Positions 1,305-47,000 of a DNA stretch of 59,216 bases are shown piece after piece. This DNA comes from a virus. Taxonomy: Duplodnaviria; Caudoviricetes. The stretch spans positions 1-59,216 of IMG/VR virus record IMGVR_UViG_3300024040_000027; one strand, written 5' to 3'. Numbering within the stretch: position 1 is the stretch's first letter; each line of letters starts with the position of its first letter. A program made the position numbers and the translations under genes. The notes under the pieces were generated by a model. The model made no database searches. It saw only the letters and a program-made list of their open reading frames with translations, and was not told where the DNA came from.

Positions 1305-1493
1305 CTATGCAAGGTGAGCTGAGTATTGGGATAGCATATCAGCCACTTGTTCCTGGACGTTGTTCTTCGCATTGGGAGCCGACGGATGGTGCATTCGTGG
1401 TTTTGGTTGCATCAGCTTCACCATTTCCGAGGATCGTTGTGTCGCATGTCTCATTGCCTCCATTAGGGGCTCCGGTGTCTGGTGTGGCTTCAT
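1305..1493 (-). CDS. Small 62-aa protein overlapping the protease 3' end
   Basis: GGAG RBS before ATG (MKPHQTPEPL...); ends just before the terminator. Confidence 0.5.
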   Translation of the reverse strand: MKPHQTPEPLMEAMRHATQRSSEMVKLMQPKPRMHHPSAPNAKNNVQEQVADMLSQYSAHLA

Positions 1494-2319
1494 ATGGCTC
1501 TCCATTGATGACGAAGGGGAAAGTGTACAAATTTACATCTGGCACTTTGTTATTTGTCTTCGCAACAAGTGCAGAATGCAATGTTTTGCTTAGGTTAGCA
1601 AGCATTTTCGATGGGCGATGGACTTCAATGAAGATGTTTTTCGCCTCTTTTCGATCAATAACAAACCCATGCGAGGGATAGGCAGATACCAAGTCCTGTA
1701 GACCATTCGCGCGCAAGTTTCCACTTTTCTCCGCCAATCTTCTCCCGTATTCAAATGCAATTTCCATGGCTCGTTGCATTTCCGCCAGCCGCATCGGGTC
1801 TATTTGGGCAGCGATTGGTTCAAAGAGGCCTAAAGTGAGCTTAGATGAAATTTCGGATGCCACTTTTGTAGAAAGGCCGGCATTTTTAGTAAGGTTTACC
1901 AAATATTGGGAAAATGCATGCATTGCCTGATTCTGCAGGTAATTCACTGCTTGAATAATGTCGAGTCCAGAATTTCTCCCGACAAGTTCATCGCTTTTTT
2001 TCACTTGGATATCAAGCGGCCCCAGTTCACTCATGTCATCGAGATATAACTTGGAAGCTCCGACAACTATCAGGGTGCCGGCGCTCTTGCAATACCGAGG
2101 AACCAGCGCATAAAATTTCTCATATGTATGCTGAATGGCGCGTGCAATACGAAATCCCGCGTGTGGATCGCCACCTGGCGTTGAAAGTACGATAAGGGCA
2201 TGGTCCGACCTTTTCTTCTCTAGGGCTTGGCAAACAGCTTCGTACCCAGCAGATGTTACCTCTCCTGCATATGTGATGACGTCCGTACATTTATTGGCCG
2301 GTATTTCGTTTTGATGCAT
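1339..2319 (-). CDS. ClpP/crotonase-fold serine protease (SDH/SppA-like, S49-related)
   Basis: Motifs TPGGDP, CKSAGTL, SELGPLDIQ, YPSHGFVIDRKEA; visibly AT-richer than flanks; GGAGG RBS before ATG 2319. Confidence 0.8.
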   Translation of the reverse strand: MHQNEIPANKCTDVITYAGEVTSAGYEAVCQALEKKRSDHALIVLSTPGGDPHAGFRIARAIQHTYEKFYALVPRYCKSAGTLIVVGASKLYLDDMSELGPLDIQVKKSDELVGRNSGLDIIQAVNYLQNQAMHAFSQYLVNLTKNAGLSTKVASEISSKLTLGLFEPIAAQIDPMRLAEMQRAMEIAFEYGRRLAEKSGNLRANGLQDLVSAYPSHGFVIDRKEAKNIFIEVHRPSKMLANLSKTLHSALVAKTNNKVPDVNLYTFPFVINGEPYEATPDTGAPNGGNETCDTTILGNGEADATKTTNAPSVGSQCEEQRPGTSG

Positions 2320-2387
2320 TCGCCCCCTCCCTGAGAGTTGTTGTTTTAGTACATCGACCGCCATTCCATGTTCTGATCCCAGTGCGC

Positions 2388-2864
2388 CTACCGCCTAGCC
2401 TTGCGCCACTCCCACGGCGCCACAGGCTCCTTGTCCGCCCACAGCCCGCGCCGTGCCGCCTTGGCCTGCTCTTGCAGCTCAGGCAACTCCCGATCCTTGT
2501 TGTATTTCTGGTAGGTCCAGGCGAGGCCTCGCTCGACCTGGGCGCGGTTGGCCTCGACGCCGTCGCACGTCACGACCGCGACGGTGCGGCCGTAGCGGTC
2601 AATGTCCTGTACCTGGTAGGTCGCGTCCTTCTCCCAGCAGAGGTCCGAGAGCGACTGCCTAGACCGTTGACCGAACGGTTGCTTCTTCTCCGGCGCATCG
2701 ATGTTCGCCAGCCTGATCTTGAGCGGCTTCTTGTCGACCAGCAGCGTCATGGTGTCGCCGTCTGCAATGCCGATCACCTGATGCGCGTGAGCGTGCGCCG
2801 CGCTGAGAAAGATCGCAGCGGCCAAGGTGAGGCGCAAGGAGGATTTGCAGTTGATCGTTCGCAT
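2388..2864 (-). CDS. Secreted thermonuclease (SNase family)
   Basis: Signal peptide; DGDT, IRLANIDAPE, DRYGR, ARRGLW motifs. Confidence 0.92.
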   Translation of the reverse strand: MRTINCKSSLRLTLAAAIFLSAAHAHAHQVIGIADGDTMTLLVDKKPLKIRLANIDAPEKKQPFGQRSRQSLSDLCWEKDATYQVQDIDRYGRTVAVVTCDGVEANRAQVERGLAWTYQKYNKDRELPELQEQAKAARRGLWADKEPVAPWEWRKARR

Positions 2865-2874
2865 TCTGCCGGCG

Positions 2875-3507
2875 CTATCTTTGTGGCGCGGTCGGATCGG
2901 ATTTTTCCGGGGAGACGGGGTTCGCATTCGAACTCATCCCGTCTGTCCATTTTTTTTCGCGGCCCCGAACCGCGCCCACCTCTATGTAGGGACCGTCTTT
3001 GGCCTGGAATATGACTGACGTGGATTTGAGTGGACCCAGCGTCAGCTTATAGTGCAGGCGATGCGTTCTGTCGGATTCCCACTTCGGTTTCTCTATCGCC
3101 GTCGTGAGTATTGATTCTGACAAAGGTTCGTTTGCCTTCTCCGGATGGGCTTTTTCGAAGTCATAAAAATCCGCATCCCGCAAGATCAGTTCGACGTAGG
3201 TAATGGTCTGCGATGGGCTGTTGTTCGATATGCGGATGTGTTTCCGCCCGTCTGGCAGGATTTCATAGTTGGTCGCAAGGTTGCAAATTTGCGCGGGGAG
3301 GGCAGAGCCAAATTCCCGCTGTACGGCGGCGTCGTGGGCTTCGTCAATTTTGTTGGCGCAGGCTTTTGCCACCATCCTGCTGGCGGCATCGCTGGAAACG
3401 CCTTTCATTCCGCTTAGGATGCAGTCGTCGTAGGCGCCGGCAAGCACATTTGGCGCGCCGAATGCACTGGCGCAGGCGAGTAGGCACGGGGCGACGAATT
3501 TGCGCAT
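2875..3507 (-). CDS. Exported hypothetical protein
   Basis: Signal-like N-terminus MRKFVAPCLLACASAFG; Cys pair YDDCIL...KAC. Confidence 0.7.
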   Translation of the reverse strand: MRKFVAPCLLACASAFGAPNVLAGAYDDCILSGMKGVSSDAASRMVAKACANKIDEAHDAAVQREFGSALPAQICNLATNYEILPDGRKHIRISNNSPSQTITYVELILRDADFYDFEKAHPEKANEPLSESILTTAIEKPKWESDRTHRLHYKLTLGPLKSTSVIFQAKDGPYIEVGAVRGREKKWTDGMSSNANPVSPEKSDPTAPQR

Positions 3508-3511
3508 GCAG

Positions 3512-3685
3512 CTACTCTTTGTCTGCCTTGGAGGCCGGCCGCACGACAAAAAATTCATAGGCGGCCGCGAAGCCGAATACGAGCAGCAAAGCTGGGGTTC
3601 CCGTGATGAATCGGCTTCCAATCAGCCACAGGAAAAAGAGCAGGATGACCGCGCCGAACAGACGTAATTTTGTGGTTTGCTTCAT
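3512..3685 (-). CDS. Small 2-TM membrane protein
   Basis: GGGAG RBS; MKQTTKLRLFGAVILLFFLWLIG... Confidence 0.65.
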   Translation of the reverse strand: MKQTTKLRLFGAVILLFFLWLIGSRFITGTPALLLVFGFAAAYEFFVVRPASKADKE

Positions 3686-4031
3686 TGCTTCTCCCTGATG
3701 GATCCCTAGAAAAGTTATGTTTTTCACATTAAATCCACAGCTCGATAGCCTTGTGAAATCCGCTGGCGCCGCTTGCGGATTTCCCCCGGCGATGGCCGCC
3801 ACTTGAAAATATTGCCACAAAGAACTAAAAAATTGGCAAATAACCTACCTAATTTGGCAAGAATTAACAATCCTGTCATGAGATTGTGCGGCGCTTTCTC
3901 GCCTCGGATGGCGAAATCACATGGCCTTAAGCAGACGACACAGCCGCGCCACCCGCAGTGCGGTAGGCCGATAATAGGCCTGAAGAGAATTAACAAACTC
4001 GCTATGGATTTCCAGACGGCACCGAATTACA

Positions 4032-4047
4032 CTGATTATTCATACAG
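4032..4047 (+). promoter_or_regulatory. Putative LexA (SOS) box overlapping a TACACT -10 element
   Basis: CTG-ATTATTCATA-CAG matches CTG-N10-CAG, one mismatch to CTGT-N8-ACAG. Confidence 0.7.
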
Positions 4048-41079: not shown

Positions 41080-44000
41080 ATGCCCGCATTAGACCAACTG
41101 AATACCCTTCTGTCCGCTCCAGACCCCACTCCGGGTTCCGAGCTTGACCGCGGGGGTGTGCTAGAACAGGCGCTCAAGCTGGAGGGCGTTGACGGTCAAT
41201 TGGCGGATGTCGCCCGCAGCGTGTACCAGCAAGAGTCCGACAGTGGCCGCAATGCCAAGACTTCCAATGCTGGCGCTCGTGGCGGCATGCAGATTCTGCC
41301 GGCCACGTTCAACGAGGTGGCGGACAAAGGCTGGAATATTGATGACCCTCTGCAAAACGCACGCTCCGGTATCCGCTATCTGAAGCAGCGATACGAGCAG
41401 GCTGGCGGCGATCCGGTATTGGCCGCTGCTGGCTACTACGGTGGTCCTGCTGGACTGGAAAAGGCCCGGCGCGGGATCGCAACGGCGGATCCGCGCAACC
41501 CGAGTGCCCCGAATACGCTGCAGTACGGGCAGCAAGTGGCGGCCCGGCTTGGTGGCGCGAGCGCGCCGCAGGATGAGGAAGGGAATACCGCCTATGTCGA
41601 TGGCATTCTGAATGCCGCATTGTCATACAAGGCGCCCGAGCCAGAAAAACCAGCTGTCGGCGTCATGCGGACTATAGGCGACACTGGGATTAAGGTTGCG
41701 CAGGGTGTAGTCGACCTTGGCGCGTCGGCGGTTGGACTTGGCAGCCTTGCCACAGGCGGCAAGATTGGCGAAGGCATGCGCGCGCTCGGCTACGACCCCA
41801 AACGCACCAATGAAATTCTCGGCGAATACCTGAGCGACAGCCAGAAAGCGTCTGATGCAAAGGTTGCGGAGGCCGACGGCTTTGTCGATGCGATTGTGGC
41901 TGGCGTCGAGAACCCGCGTTCGATTTTGGGCGGCATCGCGCAATCGTTGCCCGGCATGCTGATGGGCATGGGTGTGTCCGCCGCGCTGGCCAGCAAAGTC
42001 GCCGCCAAGGCCGCGCTGGCTACCGTGGAGGGCCGTGCAGCGGCTCAAGCGGCGCTGGCAGCCGGAAAATCGGCGTCGCAGGCAGCAGAGGCGGCTGTGG
42101 CCACGACCGCAGGGCGCACGGCGGCAACGGCTGCGATCGAGTCTGGCGGGACCAAGTTTCTGGCGGCTGGTGCGGCGACCGAGGGCGCGCAAAGTGCCGG
42201 GCAAATTGCCGACGACGCGCAGGCGTCTGGGCGAAAGTATGGCGACTATGCGCTTCCGGCGCTGGCAGCCGGCGCTGGAACTGCGGCGATCGGCTTTGGC
42301 GCCGGGAAGTTGATGGGCGACGCCGCCACCGAGATCGCGACCGGCGCCAAGTCGGCCGGCGTCAAGGGCGGGATGGCGGCGCGTGCTGGTAAGGAGTTCC
42401 TCAGCGAGGGCGTGCTGGAAGAAATGCCGCAATCGGCTCAGGAGCAATTTTTCACCAACATTGCTCAGGGCGAGGATGACCTGGGCAAAGGAGTTGGCAA
42501 TGCAGCAGGCACCGGCCTGCTGGTCGGGGGCGTCCAAGGCGCTGGCATGGGCGCGCTGCAGCGCCGCCATACGCCGACGGTAGTTCCTGACACTGGCGTG
42601 TTGTCGCGCGCGGCCAATGCGGGGCAACAGGCTGTGGCCGACAAACTCAACGCGCAGCCGGAGGTTGATCCTGGCGCGCCGCTGCCGTTTGAAAAAGTAC
42701 CGATCACGCCTCCGGCACCGGCCGGGCTGTCGCTGGAGCAGCCGGCAGAGCGCGATCCGAACAGCATCGACTTCACGCCGGAAACCGCTGCGCCATCCGC
42801 CGTGGGGCTGGAAAACCTGCAGCGTTATGGCTCAAGCGGGTTTGTCTCCAATGACCTTGACGCCCTGCGGCAATATGTCCTTCGCCACAAAGAGGGCGGT
42901 CATGACTTTTCGATCATCCCGCATGTCAATGGTGGCTATACCGTTGCGCCGACCGATCGCCTGACGCCGTTCGTGCTGGATGCTGTGCGGCATTTGCAGC
43001 CGGATGCCGCCGCGCAAGATGCGCAAACCGGCACGCCGGCACGCAGTGCCGAGCAGAGCGCACTGGCAGAGCAGGAAATCCGCCGCAGCATGTCGGCTCC
43101 GACCGGTATTGGGGAGTTGGGGCAGTTGGAGCCGGAGCGACAGGAACAGGTGCCGCAGAAAACCGAATCGAACTTTGCCAAGGTAGACGAGGCGATTGCG
43201 GCCGGCTACAAACTACACGGCAAGGTTTTGGTCAGCCCGAACGGCAAGCCATACCGCCTGAATCAGGAAGAACTGGCCTATTTCAAAAAGGCAGAGCAGG
43301 CGGCCGCGACCAATGCTGCCGCCCGTGCTGCCGCCGAATCGGTCCCGGCGGCACCCGCCGTATCCGCACCGATGGATGCGGAGCCGGAGTTCACGACGAC
43401 AAAAGACCTATACGGCAAAACCGTAACGGTTCGCACGGCGGACCTGAGCGGAAACCGGAATAGCCTGCAGCTGTATTCCAAGGCGGGGAAGCAGATTCCC
43501 GGCAGAATCGCCCGTGAAAACCTCGACCCGACCGGCGAGAAGCTGGCGGCCAACAATGCGGCAAATGCGAACAATCCGTTTCTGAACGTCATCACGACCA
43601 AGGACGGGAGGGCGTTCAAAAGCAAGATCGTCGCCGGCCGCGAGATGAACCGGCGCGGTTTGTCCGCCACGCATGAAGTGGTGCCTGCGTCCGAGGTGTC
43701 GCCGAATGCCAGCGGGTATGTGGTGCGGCGCATGAGCGCCAAGACGCTGGGGGAGCAGATCGATTCCGCTGCGCACGAGGCCGCCACCAGTCCGCAAAAC
43801 GACATTCCAGAGCCGACCGATGCGCAGAAGGAGGCCGGCAATTACAAGGTCGGCCGCATCAAGCTGCATGGTCTGGATATCTCGATCGAAAATCCCGCAG
43901 GATCCGTGCGCTCTGGCGTCGATCGCGACGGCACGCCGTGGGAAAACGAGATGCAGCACCACTATGGCTACATCCGGGGGACGGTCGGGGCGGACAAGGA

Positions 44001-47000
44001 TCACATCGATACTTTCATCGGCCCGAATCACGAGAGCGACAAGGTATTCGTGGTCGATCAGGTGCATCCGGACAGCGGCAAGTTCGACGAGCATAAGATA
44101 GTTCTTGGCGCAAATAATTTAAGCGAAGCCAAGGAAATTTATGCCGCGAATTACGCTGTAAATTGGCGCGGCGGAAAAAGTATTAGCGAATTAAGTATCG
44201 ATGACTTCAAGAAATGGCTTAAAAGCGGCAACACGAAAAAAGCATTTTCAAGCGTCGATAACTCCGTTTTTAACAAAGGCTTTTCTAATACTTGGGGCGC
44301 TGACACCAAGGGATCGACCAATGCTCAGCATGGACTCTCCAGCCCTGTAAAGGATGACGGCTTTATCAAAGTCCCACTTGGTAGTGCCGTGTCTGAGATC
44401 GGTCGTGGGAATTCCTCTGGCGGCGAATCCGTTTCTGATGGCGGCGTAAGTAACTCCAAATTTGGCGGCGATTCTGTCAAAACTCCAGCCGGAGTTTCTG
44501 AGCAAAATGGCCTCGTCGAGGCTCCACTTCAGTCCAGAAAGATGGATGGCGACATGCTCCCGCTGGGTCATGATCGCAAGGTTTTCGATGGCGTTGTTAA
44601 GCCCATTCCCGTCGATGTGGTGAACAACCTCGGACCTGGTAAGCGGCCTTCCGATGTGAGCCTCCATGACAACCCTGTGCTCAAACCTTTGCCTTCTGAC
44701 GCCATTGACGGAAACACTGATAAGCCGGTAGGAAGTCCCGTGGGCGGGGAAGGTCCTGACGTGACCTCCAGTAGAGGGTCTAGCCATAGTAGCCCCATCG
44801 AATTAAAACCCAATGATACCACTGATGCATCTATTTCAGGTGGTTCATTACGCGATGAAAAAGATGCGACCCAAATCCCACCCGGACTGGCCAAGGCTCG
44901 TGCATTGCGCGACAGGAAAAAGGCGGAACAGTTCGTTGCCGCTCCAGATGGATCGCTTCAGTTCGGCGAGATAACCCAGGACGTGGCTCAAAAAGCCAAG
45001 CGCCAGGCCGGAGAGATTCGCCTACAGCAGGGCAATGCCGAGTTTGGCCTGATCCATATCGAGCAGCGCCACGGCGATCAAATCAGGGCCGCTGGGTTTG
45101 AAAGCGTTCCGGAATTCTTGGCGCATGCGCTGAACCACATTGACAGCATTTGGCAGCCGAACAAAACGTCACAGTTAGTGGCGATTCAAGTCGAGAATGG
45201 GCGGTCTGCCGTCTTTGTGCAGTTGAAACCATCTGAGGATGGAGATTTCTACACAATCAATACGGCATTTCCTGCCGGCAAGGACTACGCGGAGAAAAGG
45301 AAGGGGTGGAAAGAGCTTTGGAGCAGGGTTCCCGTTCCCGCTGAGGCGTCCGGCGCGCCATCCCATTTCGCTGAACCTGCCCAAGATGCCGGAAAGCAGG
45401 CCACGATGGAATCAGGCCAAAGCAAGGGAGATGATACGCTCTCGGCAGGGGAAGGCAAATTTTCTCAAGGTTTGGCTGCGGGCCAGAGCGATTTGCTTGC
45501 GTCGTCGCCAGAGCAGAAAAGCAGCGTGGACGTGCCTGCCGCCGTTCCTCCAGGTTTGGCAAAAGCCCGCGCATTGCGCGATCAGAAGCGTGCCGAGCAG
45601 TTCGTGCCCGCCCCGGACGGATCGCTGAATTTCGGCGAAATTACGCCTGAAATAGCTAAGCAAGCGAAGCGTCAAGCCGGGAAAATCAGGCTGCAGCAAG
45701 GCGTCCAAAATCCGGATGGTACTGGATACGGGCGGGTACACATTGAGGCAAACCACGGGAAAGAAATTCTAGCGGCCGGATTTTCTGGAGTGGAGGATTT
45801 TGTCGCCAGCGTTGCCAGGAATTTTAATCAGGTGTGGCAGGCAACCAAAACACGACAACTTTTAGTTGCTGTGCGAGGCTCACGACAAGATGTCATGTTT
45901 GTTCAGTTGGAGCCGATGGAAGGCGGCGACTACTATCGCGTGAATTCAGCCTTCCCGGCACAAGCGGCGTATTTCGGGAGGCAAGAGAGAAAGGGAATCA
46001 AGAAACTCTGGGATGGGAGCGAACCCGCATCCGTTGTCACTGGACAACAACCCGCATACGCTGCTGAAACACCTGATAGCACGTCCAGTCAGGGCAGCCC
46101 CACCGCTCGCGGCCAGAGTGGCCACAGTGTAGCAGAGGCTGCCAAGGTAGAGAAGCCGCTTTCCGCATCCATCGGGCCCAATGGCGCACCTGAAAAAACA
46201 GGAACTCTTAATCCCAGAGAACAAAGCGGCGAATCAAGTGTAGCACCGGAGGATGAGAAAGGTGCCGAAAATGCCGAATTGGAAAATGCACTGGCGCACC
46301 TTGGCGACGTGCTGGGCGATGTATTTGGCGCCAAACTGAACGCCACCGGCCAGCAGCACACGGCAGGCGCATTGCTGCCGGCACTGTCGAGGGTGATTGA
46401 GCTTCTGGTGAAGAAGGGCGCCCGCTCTTTCCGTGACGCGCTTACCGAGTCGGTCAAAGCGATGCGGGGGAATGCCGCGGTTGCGCCGCATCTGGACGCG
46501 ATCAGCGCGCGCCAGTGGAAGGCCGCCTACAACGCGATTGCCGATTTCCATGATGGCACCGATAGCGAGGAAACCGTAGCGGCCATCAGCGCGGATGACG
46601 TGCGCGATATGGTCGCTTCGGCAGCAGGCCAGTCGCAAGAAAAGAACGGTACGCAGGAGGGAGAAAAGACCGACGAGCCGGAGCCGAAAACTGAGGTGGC
46701 AGAGGTTGGCGTTCGTGACCAGGACGTAGGCACTGTCGAAGATATTGGCCGAAGGAGTTATGCCAGCGGCTCGCCTCGCGTGGCGCCCGGCGGGCTTTCC
46801 GGGAGTAATCAGAAGAAATGGTACTCCGGATACGACAGCGCCAAGCAGGAAGCAGCGGGGAAGGCCAGCGAAAATCCGGAGAACAGCGCCGCGCCTGAAC
46901 ATGTCGCCGCCAGAGCAGACAGCCGCGATCAGGCTGAGCGCGAGATTACGCGCCAGCTCAATGAGCAGTGGAGCGCGCAGACCGGCAGCGGATTCGCCAT

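Follow-up and report, generated by a model that had tools for sequence, protein, structure and literature searches.

A putative homing endonuclease gene nested antisense and in codon register within a phage polyvalent protein gene

Background

To our knowledge, homing endonuclease genes (HEGs) are thought to survive in coding regions only by way of introns or inteins, between genes, or by splitting the genes that they enter. Here we describe an arrangement that would add an antisense solution to these modes of survival, beside the same-strand, out-of-frame 'hidden' HNH genes discussed below. The window, by which we mean the whole 59,216 bp of the IMG/VR provirus record IMGVR_UViG_3300024040_000027 (a phage of 59% GC), contains a gene for a 179-amino-acid (aa) HNH endonuclease that lies wholly antisense to, and codon for codon in register with, a gene for a 2373-aa polyvalent protein.

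Free-standing HEGs within phage genes have a precedent in mobE, which reportedly splits nrdA of phage Aeh1 into two open reading frames (ORFs) whose products reassemble. HEGs of this type are within a coding region and are associated with neither an intron nor an intein, as in the window; here, however, the host ORF is in one piece. The HNH protein of the window can also be compared with I-HmuI, the intron-encoded HNH nicking homing endonuclease of SPO1, which is encoded in a group I intron in the sense orientation.

The closest precedent is provided by the ShiLan-domain 'hidden HNH' insertions found in the DNA methylase genes of mycobacteriophages (Arsenault, Gosselin and Gogarten 2025, PMC11855218), and the gene described here is an antisense variant of that kind. 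The ShiLan HNH ORF, like the present one, lies wholly in an insertion within a phage gene; the host frame stays open with no detectable intron or intein, a tolerated loop is the proposed product of that frame, and the insertions are sporadic among phages. However, the ShiLan HNH gene is found on the same strand in an alternate frame and has a GTG start and no ribosome-binding site, leaderless translation being proposed, whereas the gene in the window lies on the opposite strand in exact codon register, has Shine-Dalgarno (SD)-like and -10-like signals of its own, and occupies the gene of a giant polyvalent protein instead of a methylase. The words antisense, reverse and opposite are absent from the paper. 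The likeness is one of architecture; no Mycobacterium phage appears among the best 25 of 90 tblastn matches listed for the HNH protein, or in the organism and host names of the search summary.

Antisense endonuclease genes of the LAGLIDADG or VSR-like types have been described inside inteins (Gosselin et al., bioRxiv 10.1101/2025.01.02.630785, citing Gorbalenya 1998 and Gogarten 2002); the antisense types given in the accessible part of that preprint do not include HNH. As in the window, the host ORF stays open in these cases and the sense translation has no recognizable fold. However, the filler is spliced out together with the intein there, whereas here there is no intein and the filler should stay in the mature protein.

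InPase and LPD38 are phage-type polyvalent domains, likely virion-packaged, and a many-domain architecture defines polyvalent proteins (Iyer et al. 2017, PMC5512222); the host gene of the window matches this architecture with its SLT, InPase and PBECR-like domains. As far as its text was available to us, that paper does not mention homing, inteins or nested antisense endonuclease genes, and HNH occurs in it once, in another context. Full-text literature searches gave no description of antisense HNH genes nested in polyvalent proteins, although supplementary survey tables might hold cases.

Results and discussion

An HNH gene in exact codon register with its host gene

The initial annotation of the window, made from the sequence alone, had placed a 179-aa HNH ORF wholly antisense inside the 2373-aa ORF, with the codons of the two in exact register. 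Both ORFs were confirmed, and the smaller has a match to HNH_3 (PF13392) far above the family cut-off (Table 1). The start coordinates of both are 1 mod 3 and the register is therefore exact, each HNH codon being the reverse complement of one host codon. At 44248-44250 the plus strand has TCA, which pairs with the HNH stop codon TGA and is read as host Ser 1057; at 44785-44787 it has CAT, which pairs with the HNH start codon ATG and is read as host His 1236. The stop is positioned eight residues past the end of the InPase profile (aa 1048), right after a C-terminal tail motif that is conserved in InPase relatives. The start codon lies five codons after the preceding in-frame stop, and the gene is full length.

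Residues H56, H57, D59, N64, N65, N69 and H82 are invariant among 19 family sequences. The two HTH-like repeats that had also been noticed in the ORF correspond to three-helix bundles in the model described below. By sequence, the first helix-turn-helix (HTH) module has a weak match to HTH_23 (E 2.7e-5) that falls just below the cut-off (24.3 bits against 24.6). The second module is missing from shorter relatives, namely L068/L093 (one locus), L200 and the database protein P0016.

Long antisense shadow ORFs are common in the window. However, five other antisense ORFs (334-519 aa) in its two giant genes have no Pfam family, and the HNH ORF is therefore more than another GC-rich shadow. The 2373-aa protein is present, from three contigs, in a collection of 5.8 billion proteins from which the HNH protein itself is absent; gene callers evidently suppress the nested gene, and other genes nested in this manner would be missed likewise. 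The nearest database relative of the HNH protein is 61% identical to it, and full-length relatives in general are 43-61% identical.

Table 1. Features of the nested HNH gene, its host gene and the adjoining sequence
Feature	Position	Strand	Details
Host gene, polyvalent protein, 2373 aa	41080..48201	+	ORF; SLT and InPase by Pfam
InPase domain (PF18823, aa 914-1048)	43819..44223	+	Pfam E 3.3e-56; directly upstream of insert
Compositionally foreign tract, ~2 kb	44110..46089	+	last 46 InPase codons, HNH gene, both PBECR-like repeats
HNH endonuclease gene, 179 aa + stop	44248..44787	-	ORF with ATG start; Pfam HNH_3
Overprinted shadow peptide (host aa 1057-1236)	44248..44787	+	Gly/Ser/Val/Asp/Pro-rich; predicted disordered
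Second helix-turn-helix module (aa 140-173)	44269..44370	-	three helices in AlphaFold model
First helix-turn-helix module (aa 90-123)	44419..44520	-	HTH_23 match; three helices in model
HNH_3 catalytic core (aa 37-79)	44551..44679	-	Pfam E 9.9e-12, 44.7 bits against cut-off 24.8
Purine run GGGG	44793..44796	-	possible ribosome-binding site; 6-9 nt before HNH ATG
TGGTATCAT, extended -10-like motif	44813-44821	-	upstream of HNH gene; TATCAT ends 25 nt before ATG
PBECR-like domain copy 1	44863..45399	+	ESM Atlas lead; 54% identical to copy 2
PBECR-like domain copy 2	45547..46119	+	54% identical to copy 1
Next ORF, 3486 aa	48241..58701	+	PBECR3 (aa 2358-2462, E 4.8e-15); weak SNF2 match

Nesting and stop codon avoidance across the family

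The DNA of family relatives was taken from viral contigs, species genomes and metagenomes, and comprises 18 distinct loci with the window included. We counted an HNH gene as nested if all of it falls within an antisense ORF that is codon-aligned with it and exceeds it in length by at least 200 aa. This is the case in 14 of the 18 loci, always in the same one of the three antisense registers, with host ORFs of 441-3374 aa, several of which are cut by contig ends. Over the whole HNH gene, 17 of the 18 loci have no stop in the aligned antisense frame, and this is true even of members at 32% and 39% GC. The family is spread over distant host phyla (Pseudomonadota, Verrucomicrobiota and Omnitrophota).

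In this one register the host-frame stops would correspond to whole HNH codons, TTA, CTA and TCA, which synonymous codon choice could avoid. Each of the three has synonyms, and the element could therefore be transparent to the host ribosome at no cost to the HNH protein. The initial annotation had pointed to the avoidance of these codons in the window, and the count is correct, as none of them is found among 13 Leu and 14 Ser codons. However, the chance of such avoidance under the Leu/Ser codon usage of this phage is about 0.19, which is not significant for the window alone, and the avoidance is meaningful because of the family-wide comparison. None of the three codons occurs in 15 of 16 family genes other than that of the window, as opposed to 15 of 152 other, more distant HNH_3 genes in the loci that we fetched (Fisher's exact P 4.6e-13, with the window counted in the family). 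Among such other HNH_3 genes below 40% GC, one of 68 is free of them. The sole family member with TTA, CTA or TCA codons, of which it has six, is L199 (179 aa), where another antisense register is stop-free over the whole gene.

A chance of this size, together with the frequency of long antisense shadow ORFs in the window, could suggest that a free-standing HNH gene has an antisense frame that is open by coincidence and that fuses two real genes. However, this is extremely unlikely given that 14 of 18 members are nested, all in one register, that there are no forbidden codons even at 32% GC, that InPase is within one continuous giant ORF in 74 of 80 InPase loci, and that independent DNA runs agree in sequence and show no indels. 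The arrangement has clearly evolved and is not accidental, the family avoiding just the three host-stopping codons even in AT-rich genomes. Among natural examples in bacterial viruses of two genes that overlap antisense and codon-aligned over a long stretch, it is one of the better supported.

Four of the 18 members (L172, L174/L198, L203 and L199) are outside any large ORF, and residence in a giant gene is therefore not obligatory. In two of these, L198:5929-6537 and L172:1164-1823 (both on the minus strand; HNH genes at 32% and 39% GC), the antisense frame forms a separate ORF of 202 or 219 aa that has a start of its own and is packed between genes of the same strand. In L198 this ORF shares 7 nt with the end of the ORF before it, which is at least 1996 aa long, and ORFs of 101 and 1518 aa come after it. 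The arrangement of L198 and L172 represents either a split polyvalent gene or an intergenic insert that is still kept translatable.

One nested member (L173) is from Aromatoleum anaerobium LuFRes1 (NZ_WTVG02000039.1, 296485-309024), where the HNH gene lies in a complete 2398-aa antisense ORF without a Pfam family and carries the NCBI annotation 'HNH endonuclease' (P0010). It is the sole isolate among the species-genome contig matches, the others being metagenome-assembled genomes, and is a possible laboratory entry point.

Selection on the two frames and the shadow peptide

The initial annotation had suggested that selection be compared in both frames. We aligned the codons of 18 HNH genes (153 pairs) and found 11887, 9176 and 15846 differences at HNH codon positions 1, 2 and 3, respectively. 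In the HNH frame the mean ratio of nonsynonymous to synonymous change (pN/pS) is 0.56, compared with 0.96 in the host (shadow) frame; both ratios are rough because the pairs are old and their synonymous sites are near saturated. The mean amino-acid identity is 41% in the HNH frame and 23% in the host frame. These values point to a conserved HNH protein and to a host-frame peptide that appears to drift, constrained only to lack stops.

The earlier description of the plus-frame peptide as filler is borne out by its properties. Ser, Gly, Pro, Asp, Asn and Thr make up 57% of the shadow peptide, and no Pfam family matches it with E up to 5. Its model shows no secondary structure and has a predicted local distance difference test (pLDDT) score of 35-47, compared with 82-97 for InPase in the same model, although the low score may be partly technical, as only one other row of the alignment (L068) holds the insert. 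When the shadow peptide was searched against the protein database, one further giant protein was found, P0069 (2461 aa, 41% identity); the peptide is too weakly conserved to serve for counts. The arrangement as a whole suggests that polyvalent-protein linkers can tolerate such insertions.

Tests for an intron, intein or transposon

A cmscan search of positions 43500-45500 on both strands against Rfam gave no matches with E up to 1, and there is no Intein_splicing or Hint family of Pfam in the 2373-aa protein. As a positive control, the same Pfam library detects Intein_splicing in L117, L098 and L160. The non-conserved sequence flanking the HNH ORF amounts to 0 aa at the stop side and approximately 25 aa from the start to the next conserved motif. 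With the HNH stop abutting the conserved InPase end and so little sequence on the other side, there is no room for intein splicing blocks. Contigs from independent DNA runs and one RNA library are identical, uninterrupted and without indels, and no joined form was seen among them. The contig from the RNA library (20.9 kb) carries the unspliced form; it may derive from DNA, and the contigs show neither strand nor level. The HNH gene is thus not in a self-splicing intron, an intein or an intergenic position, and lies inside a continuous ORF.

According to Iyer et al. 2017 (PMC5512222), the peptidase domains of polyvalent proteins probably cleave these proteins into units, and more distant HNH_3 genes do sit antisense in the inteins of terminase genes. 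The insert could in principle be removed, through an unrecognised intron, an intein-like element or proteolysis, giving a mature host protein without the shadow. However, we consider this very unlikely in view of the negative Rfam and Pfam searches and the lack of room for splicing blocks. Nor would an intron gain anything from a host frame that is kept open, as it is in 17 of the 18 loci. The unspliced RNA-library contig also argues against removal, weakly in that it may derive from DNA.

In at least 20 of the fetched loci, the more distant HNH_3 genes are wholly antisense inside inteins of putative large-terminase genes (L098-L100, L111-L113, L117-L120, L123, L125, L126, L137, L141, L150, L153, L156, L157, L160 and L248). 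Their register is offset by one base and is not codon-aligned, and the ORFs of 590-930 aa have N-terminal and C-terminal intein blocks on either side of a junk-like middle. In L117, for example, the ORF is at 1418-4033 on the minus strand and the HNH gene at 2962-3684 on the plus strand. Of four intein-type ORFs searched with Pfam, L117, L098 and L160 match Intein_splicing at E of approximately 4e-7 to 9e-7, below the gathering score, and L137 gave nothing. Terminase_3 was found in L160, and HNH_3 in both of the two antisense ORFs that were tested.

The sequence around the insert in the window contains short imperfect repeat matches only, with no terminal inverted repeats, direct repeats or target duplications. 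A transposon was considered as the source of the insert and dropped, given the lack of terminal repeats and target duplications.

Predicted structure and closest solved relative

The AlphaFold model of the HNH protein, built from a 19-sequence alignment, has a mean pLDDT of 86. An N-terminal sheet is followed in it by the HNH core and then by two bundles of three helices each (at aa 90-123 and at aa 140-173). The core, with the beta-beta-alpha-metal fold and the conserved His and Asn residues of HNH enzymes, comprises strands at 53-57 and 70-74 and a helix at 75-83, all with pLDDT above 90. The best solved match by sequence profile is I-HmuI (1u3e; E 9.5e-4, profile positions 18-96). The same structure is ranked first by Foldseek (E 5.6e-3, probability 1.00), although the global template-modelling (TM) score is only 0.35, the root-mean-square deviation is 11.8 over 133 columns and identity is 20%. 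I-HmuI of Bacillus phage SPO1 has the same elongated plan, in which an N-terminal sheet and an HNH core are followed by a C-terminal helical DNA-binding part; however, the protein of the window differs from it in having two HTH repeats. We conclude that the 540-bp ORF is probably a homing-type HNH endonuclease gene similar to that of I-HmuI, which is functional or was so until recently, and that it was inserted backwards into an interdomain linker. The initial annotation had proposed a homing-type invader that persists as a tolerated linker without an intron or intein, and the nesting of 14 of 18 members, the lack of splicing elements and the near-neutral, predicted disordered shadow support that proposal.

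Other roles for the gene can be considered. Its two HTH modules, the purifying selection on the HNH frame, the retention of the family across distant host phyla and its own -10-like and SD-like signals would also be expected of a domesticated gene, whose antisense HNH-HTH product could serve the phage as a regulator, as a nuclease against host or competitor DNA, or as an antisense-transcription brake on the giant gene. However, sporadic presence (one of 80 InPase loci) and varied insertion sites are typical of selfish elements and would not be expected of a fixed regulator. In addition, the solved structure closest to the protein is that of a homing endonuclease, and the catalytic HNH residues, needless for a pure regulator, are invariant. 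Domestication thus seems rather unlikely.

It is also quite unlikely that the gene is a stranded remnant, once mobile, now inactive or unexpressed in the prophage and persisting because clean removal is improbable. No close insert-less or insert-bearing relatives were found that would be a sign of recent movement, family pairs are at most 63% identical, and three HNH genes (L068/L093, L200 and P0016) are without the second HTH, all of which would fit a remnant. However, the gene of the window is full length, with its start so close to the preceding in-frame stop, all of the invariant catalytic residues are present, and the HNH frame has a much lower pN/pS than the shadow frame.

Expression signals

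The extended -10 that had been described before the ORF is present on the minus strand (Table 1); however, a scan for two-hexamer promoters gave no site for the HNH gene. Upstream motifs were tested on 13 family rows, L203, L205, L095, L204 and L175 being left out as their start codons are uncertain. An SD-like purine motif at -16 to -4 is found in nine of the 13 members, against a background of 12.8% (P 4e-6). A -10-like hexamer occurs in six of the 13 upstream regions, four times as TATCAT, against a background of 8.7% (P 4e-4). This enrichment fits independent antisense expression of the HNH gene, as far as upstream sequence can indicate.

Host genes, insertion sites and empty relatives

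Pfam domains were found in nine of ten host ORFs scanned, the exception being L173. Domains specific to polyvalent proteins are present in seven of the ten (ART-PolyVal, LPD38, ddrB-ParB together with SLT, helicase and methylase, and InPase in four cases), and two others have general families only (AAA_34/Helicase_C_4 in L196 and 2',5' RNA ligase in L095). In six loci (the window, L068/L093, L197, L200, L202 and L204) the insert lies 0-22 residues past the InPase C-terminus. The remaining inserts are at other sites, and that of L175 is just before an InPase domain.

For comparison we used the 80 best InPase loci of IMG/VR. InPase is within an ORF that runs on for at least 695 aa in 74 of these, and is followed by a variable Ala/Pro-rich linker and then by differing domains. 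The HNH gene is present in one of the 80 (L068), and its occurrence among homologous host genes is therefore sporadic. In the most colinear relatives, L018 and L028, approximately 40-60 aa separate InPase from a common C-terminal region, compared with approximately 625-685 aa in the window. The comparison of presence and absence among related phages, which the initial annotation had called for, thus shows a sporadic insert that L018 and L028 lack; however, it did not yield precise boundaries or a near-identical allele.

The tract from 44110 to 46089 is mostly missing from L018 and L028, and its composition differs from that of the rest of the host gene. GC content at third codon positions (GC3) in the host frame is 0.71 (717/1010 codons) in the upstream part of the gene, 0.41 (19/46) in the last 46 InPase codons (P 2.6e-5 against upstream), 0.55 (240/434) at 44788-46089 (P 3e-12 against upstream) and 0.68 (481/703) in the rest of the gene. 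Given this shift, the tract looks imported as one block, which would be the expected trace of homing co-conversion, or of cassette recombination.

A possible homing cycle

The mechanism that we propose is that the HNH gene invades, in antisense orientation, the linkers of polyvalent proteins, whose domains would be arranged like beads on a string. The host ribosome would read through the insert and produce a disordered spacer of approximately 180 residues, rich in Gly, Ser, Pro and Asp, between globular domains. The enzyme would presumably be made from its own antisense promoter and ribosome-binding site. Alleles without the insert in co-resident phages could then be nicked or cut by it, and their repair by recombination would bring in a copy of the gene together with sequence from its flanks.

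Several points weigh against this interpretation. In addition to the modest codon evidence from the window alone, the partly technical nature of the disorder score and the four members outside large ORFs, all family pairs are at most 63% identical in amino acids, with synonymous sites near saturation. No near-identical insert-less allele was found, the closest InPase relative being 76% identical in protein, and the exact element boundaries and the target site are therefore not defined. A DNA search with positions 43300-45700 against cultured phages gave short matches in the InPase region only, at 68-73% identity and with no close relative, and the best tblastn match of the HNH protein to cultured phages is 32.5% identical among the best 25 of 90 matches listed; a cultured model and a true empty-site allele are therefore both lacking. 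A change of nearest neighbour towards the end of InPase would be a sign of co-conversion; the same relatives (L013, L017, L018 and L014) rank first for the final 46 codons and for the rest of the domain, the C-terminal part being less conserved, and the comparison is uninformative. A maximum-likelihood tree of 18 HNH proteins leaves 13 of 15 inner branches unresolved, too many to tell a single lineage of InPase-site inserts from several site-specific lineages. That the HNH gene is transcribed and translated, that its product cleaves DNA, that the gene homes and that the spacer does the host no harm are steps that we infer.

Flanking domains of the inserts show a mosaic pattern. The first domain downstream of the insert in the window has a 51%-identical copy following the HNH insert in L173, the Aromatoleum prophage locus; this domain is on the 5' side of the HNH gene, and the opposite flanks are unrelated. 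Likewise, L093 and L196 have another 5'-side domain in common (51% identity) and unrelated opposite flanks. The six hosts that share InPase on the 3' side of the HNH gene have unrelated domains on the 5' side, and the mosaic is thus centred on the insert.

A broader and more doubtful possibility is that this HNH family is a distinct class of antisense in-frame homing elements specialised for polyvalent genes, in which cutting and co-conversion of flanks would drive the swapping of effector cassettes. It is hinted at by the foreign 2-kb tract and by the pairs window/L173 and L093/L196, which share a downstream domain but not the upstream flank. If true, swapping of this kind would be a mechanism for the well-known mosaicism of polyvalent genes, and it offers a testable route by which the effector domains of phage polyvalent proteins might be shuffled.

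The host protein and its neighbours

Along the 2373-aa protein, SLT (aa 43-131) is followed by InPase (aa 914-1048) and then by the overprinted linker and the two PBECR-like repeats; the C-terminal region is common to L018, L028 and L020. Portal and tail-fibre-type genes are found upstream of its gene. The initial annotation had regarded the invaded gene as structural. However, several effector domains in one giant phage polypeptide, encoded beside virion genes, are characteristic of polyvalent proteins, and based on this domain content the product is probably a virion-packaged polyvalent effector protein rather than that of a classical structural gene.

The HNH gene had also been placed between a PPase-like and a BECR domain. 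The first of these is the InPase domain. On the other side are two tandem domain copies of approximately 155 aa each, without an established name. In the ESM Atlas the repeat domain adjoins PBECR1/PBECR3 clusters (score 0.91); the 'BECR' label is a lead only, because the Atlas is its sole basis and neither repeat matches a Pfam family at E up to 5. When the first repeat was compared by BLASTP with the PBECR3 region that the next giant ORF encodes, the E value was 0.09. This 3486-aa ORF (Table 1) is a second polyvalent protein and not an N4-type virion RNA polymerase.

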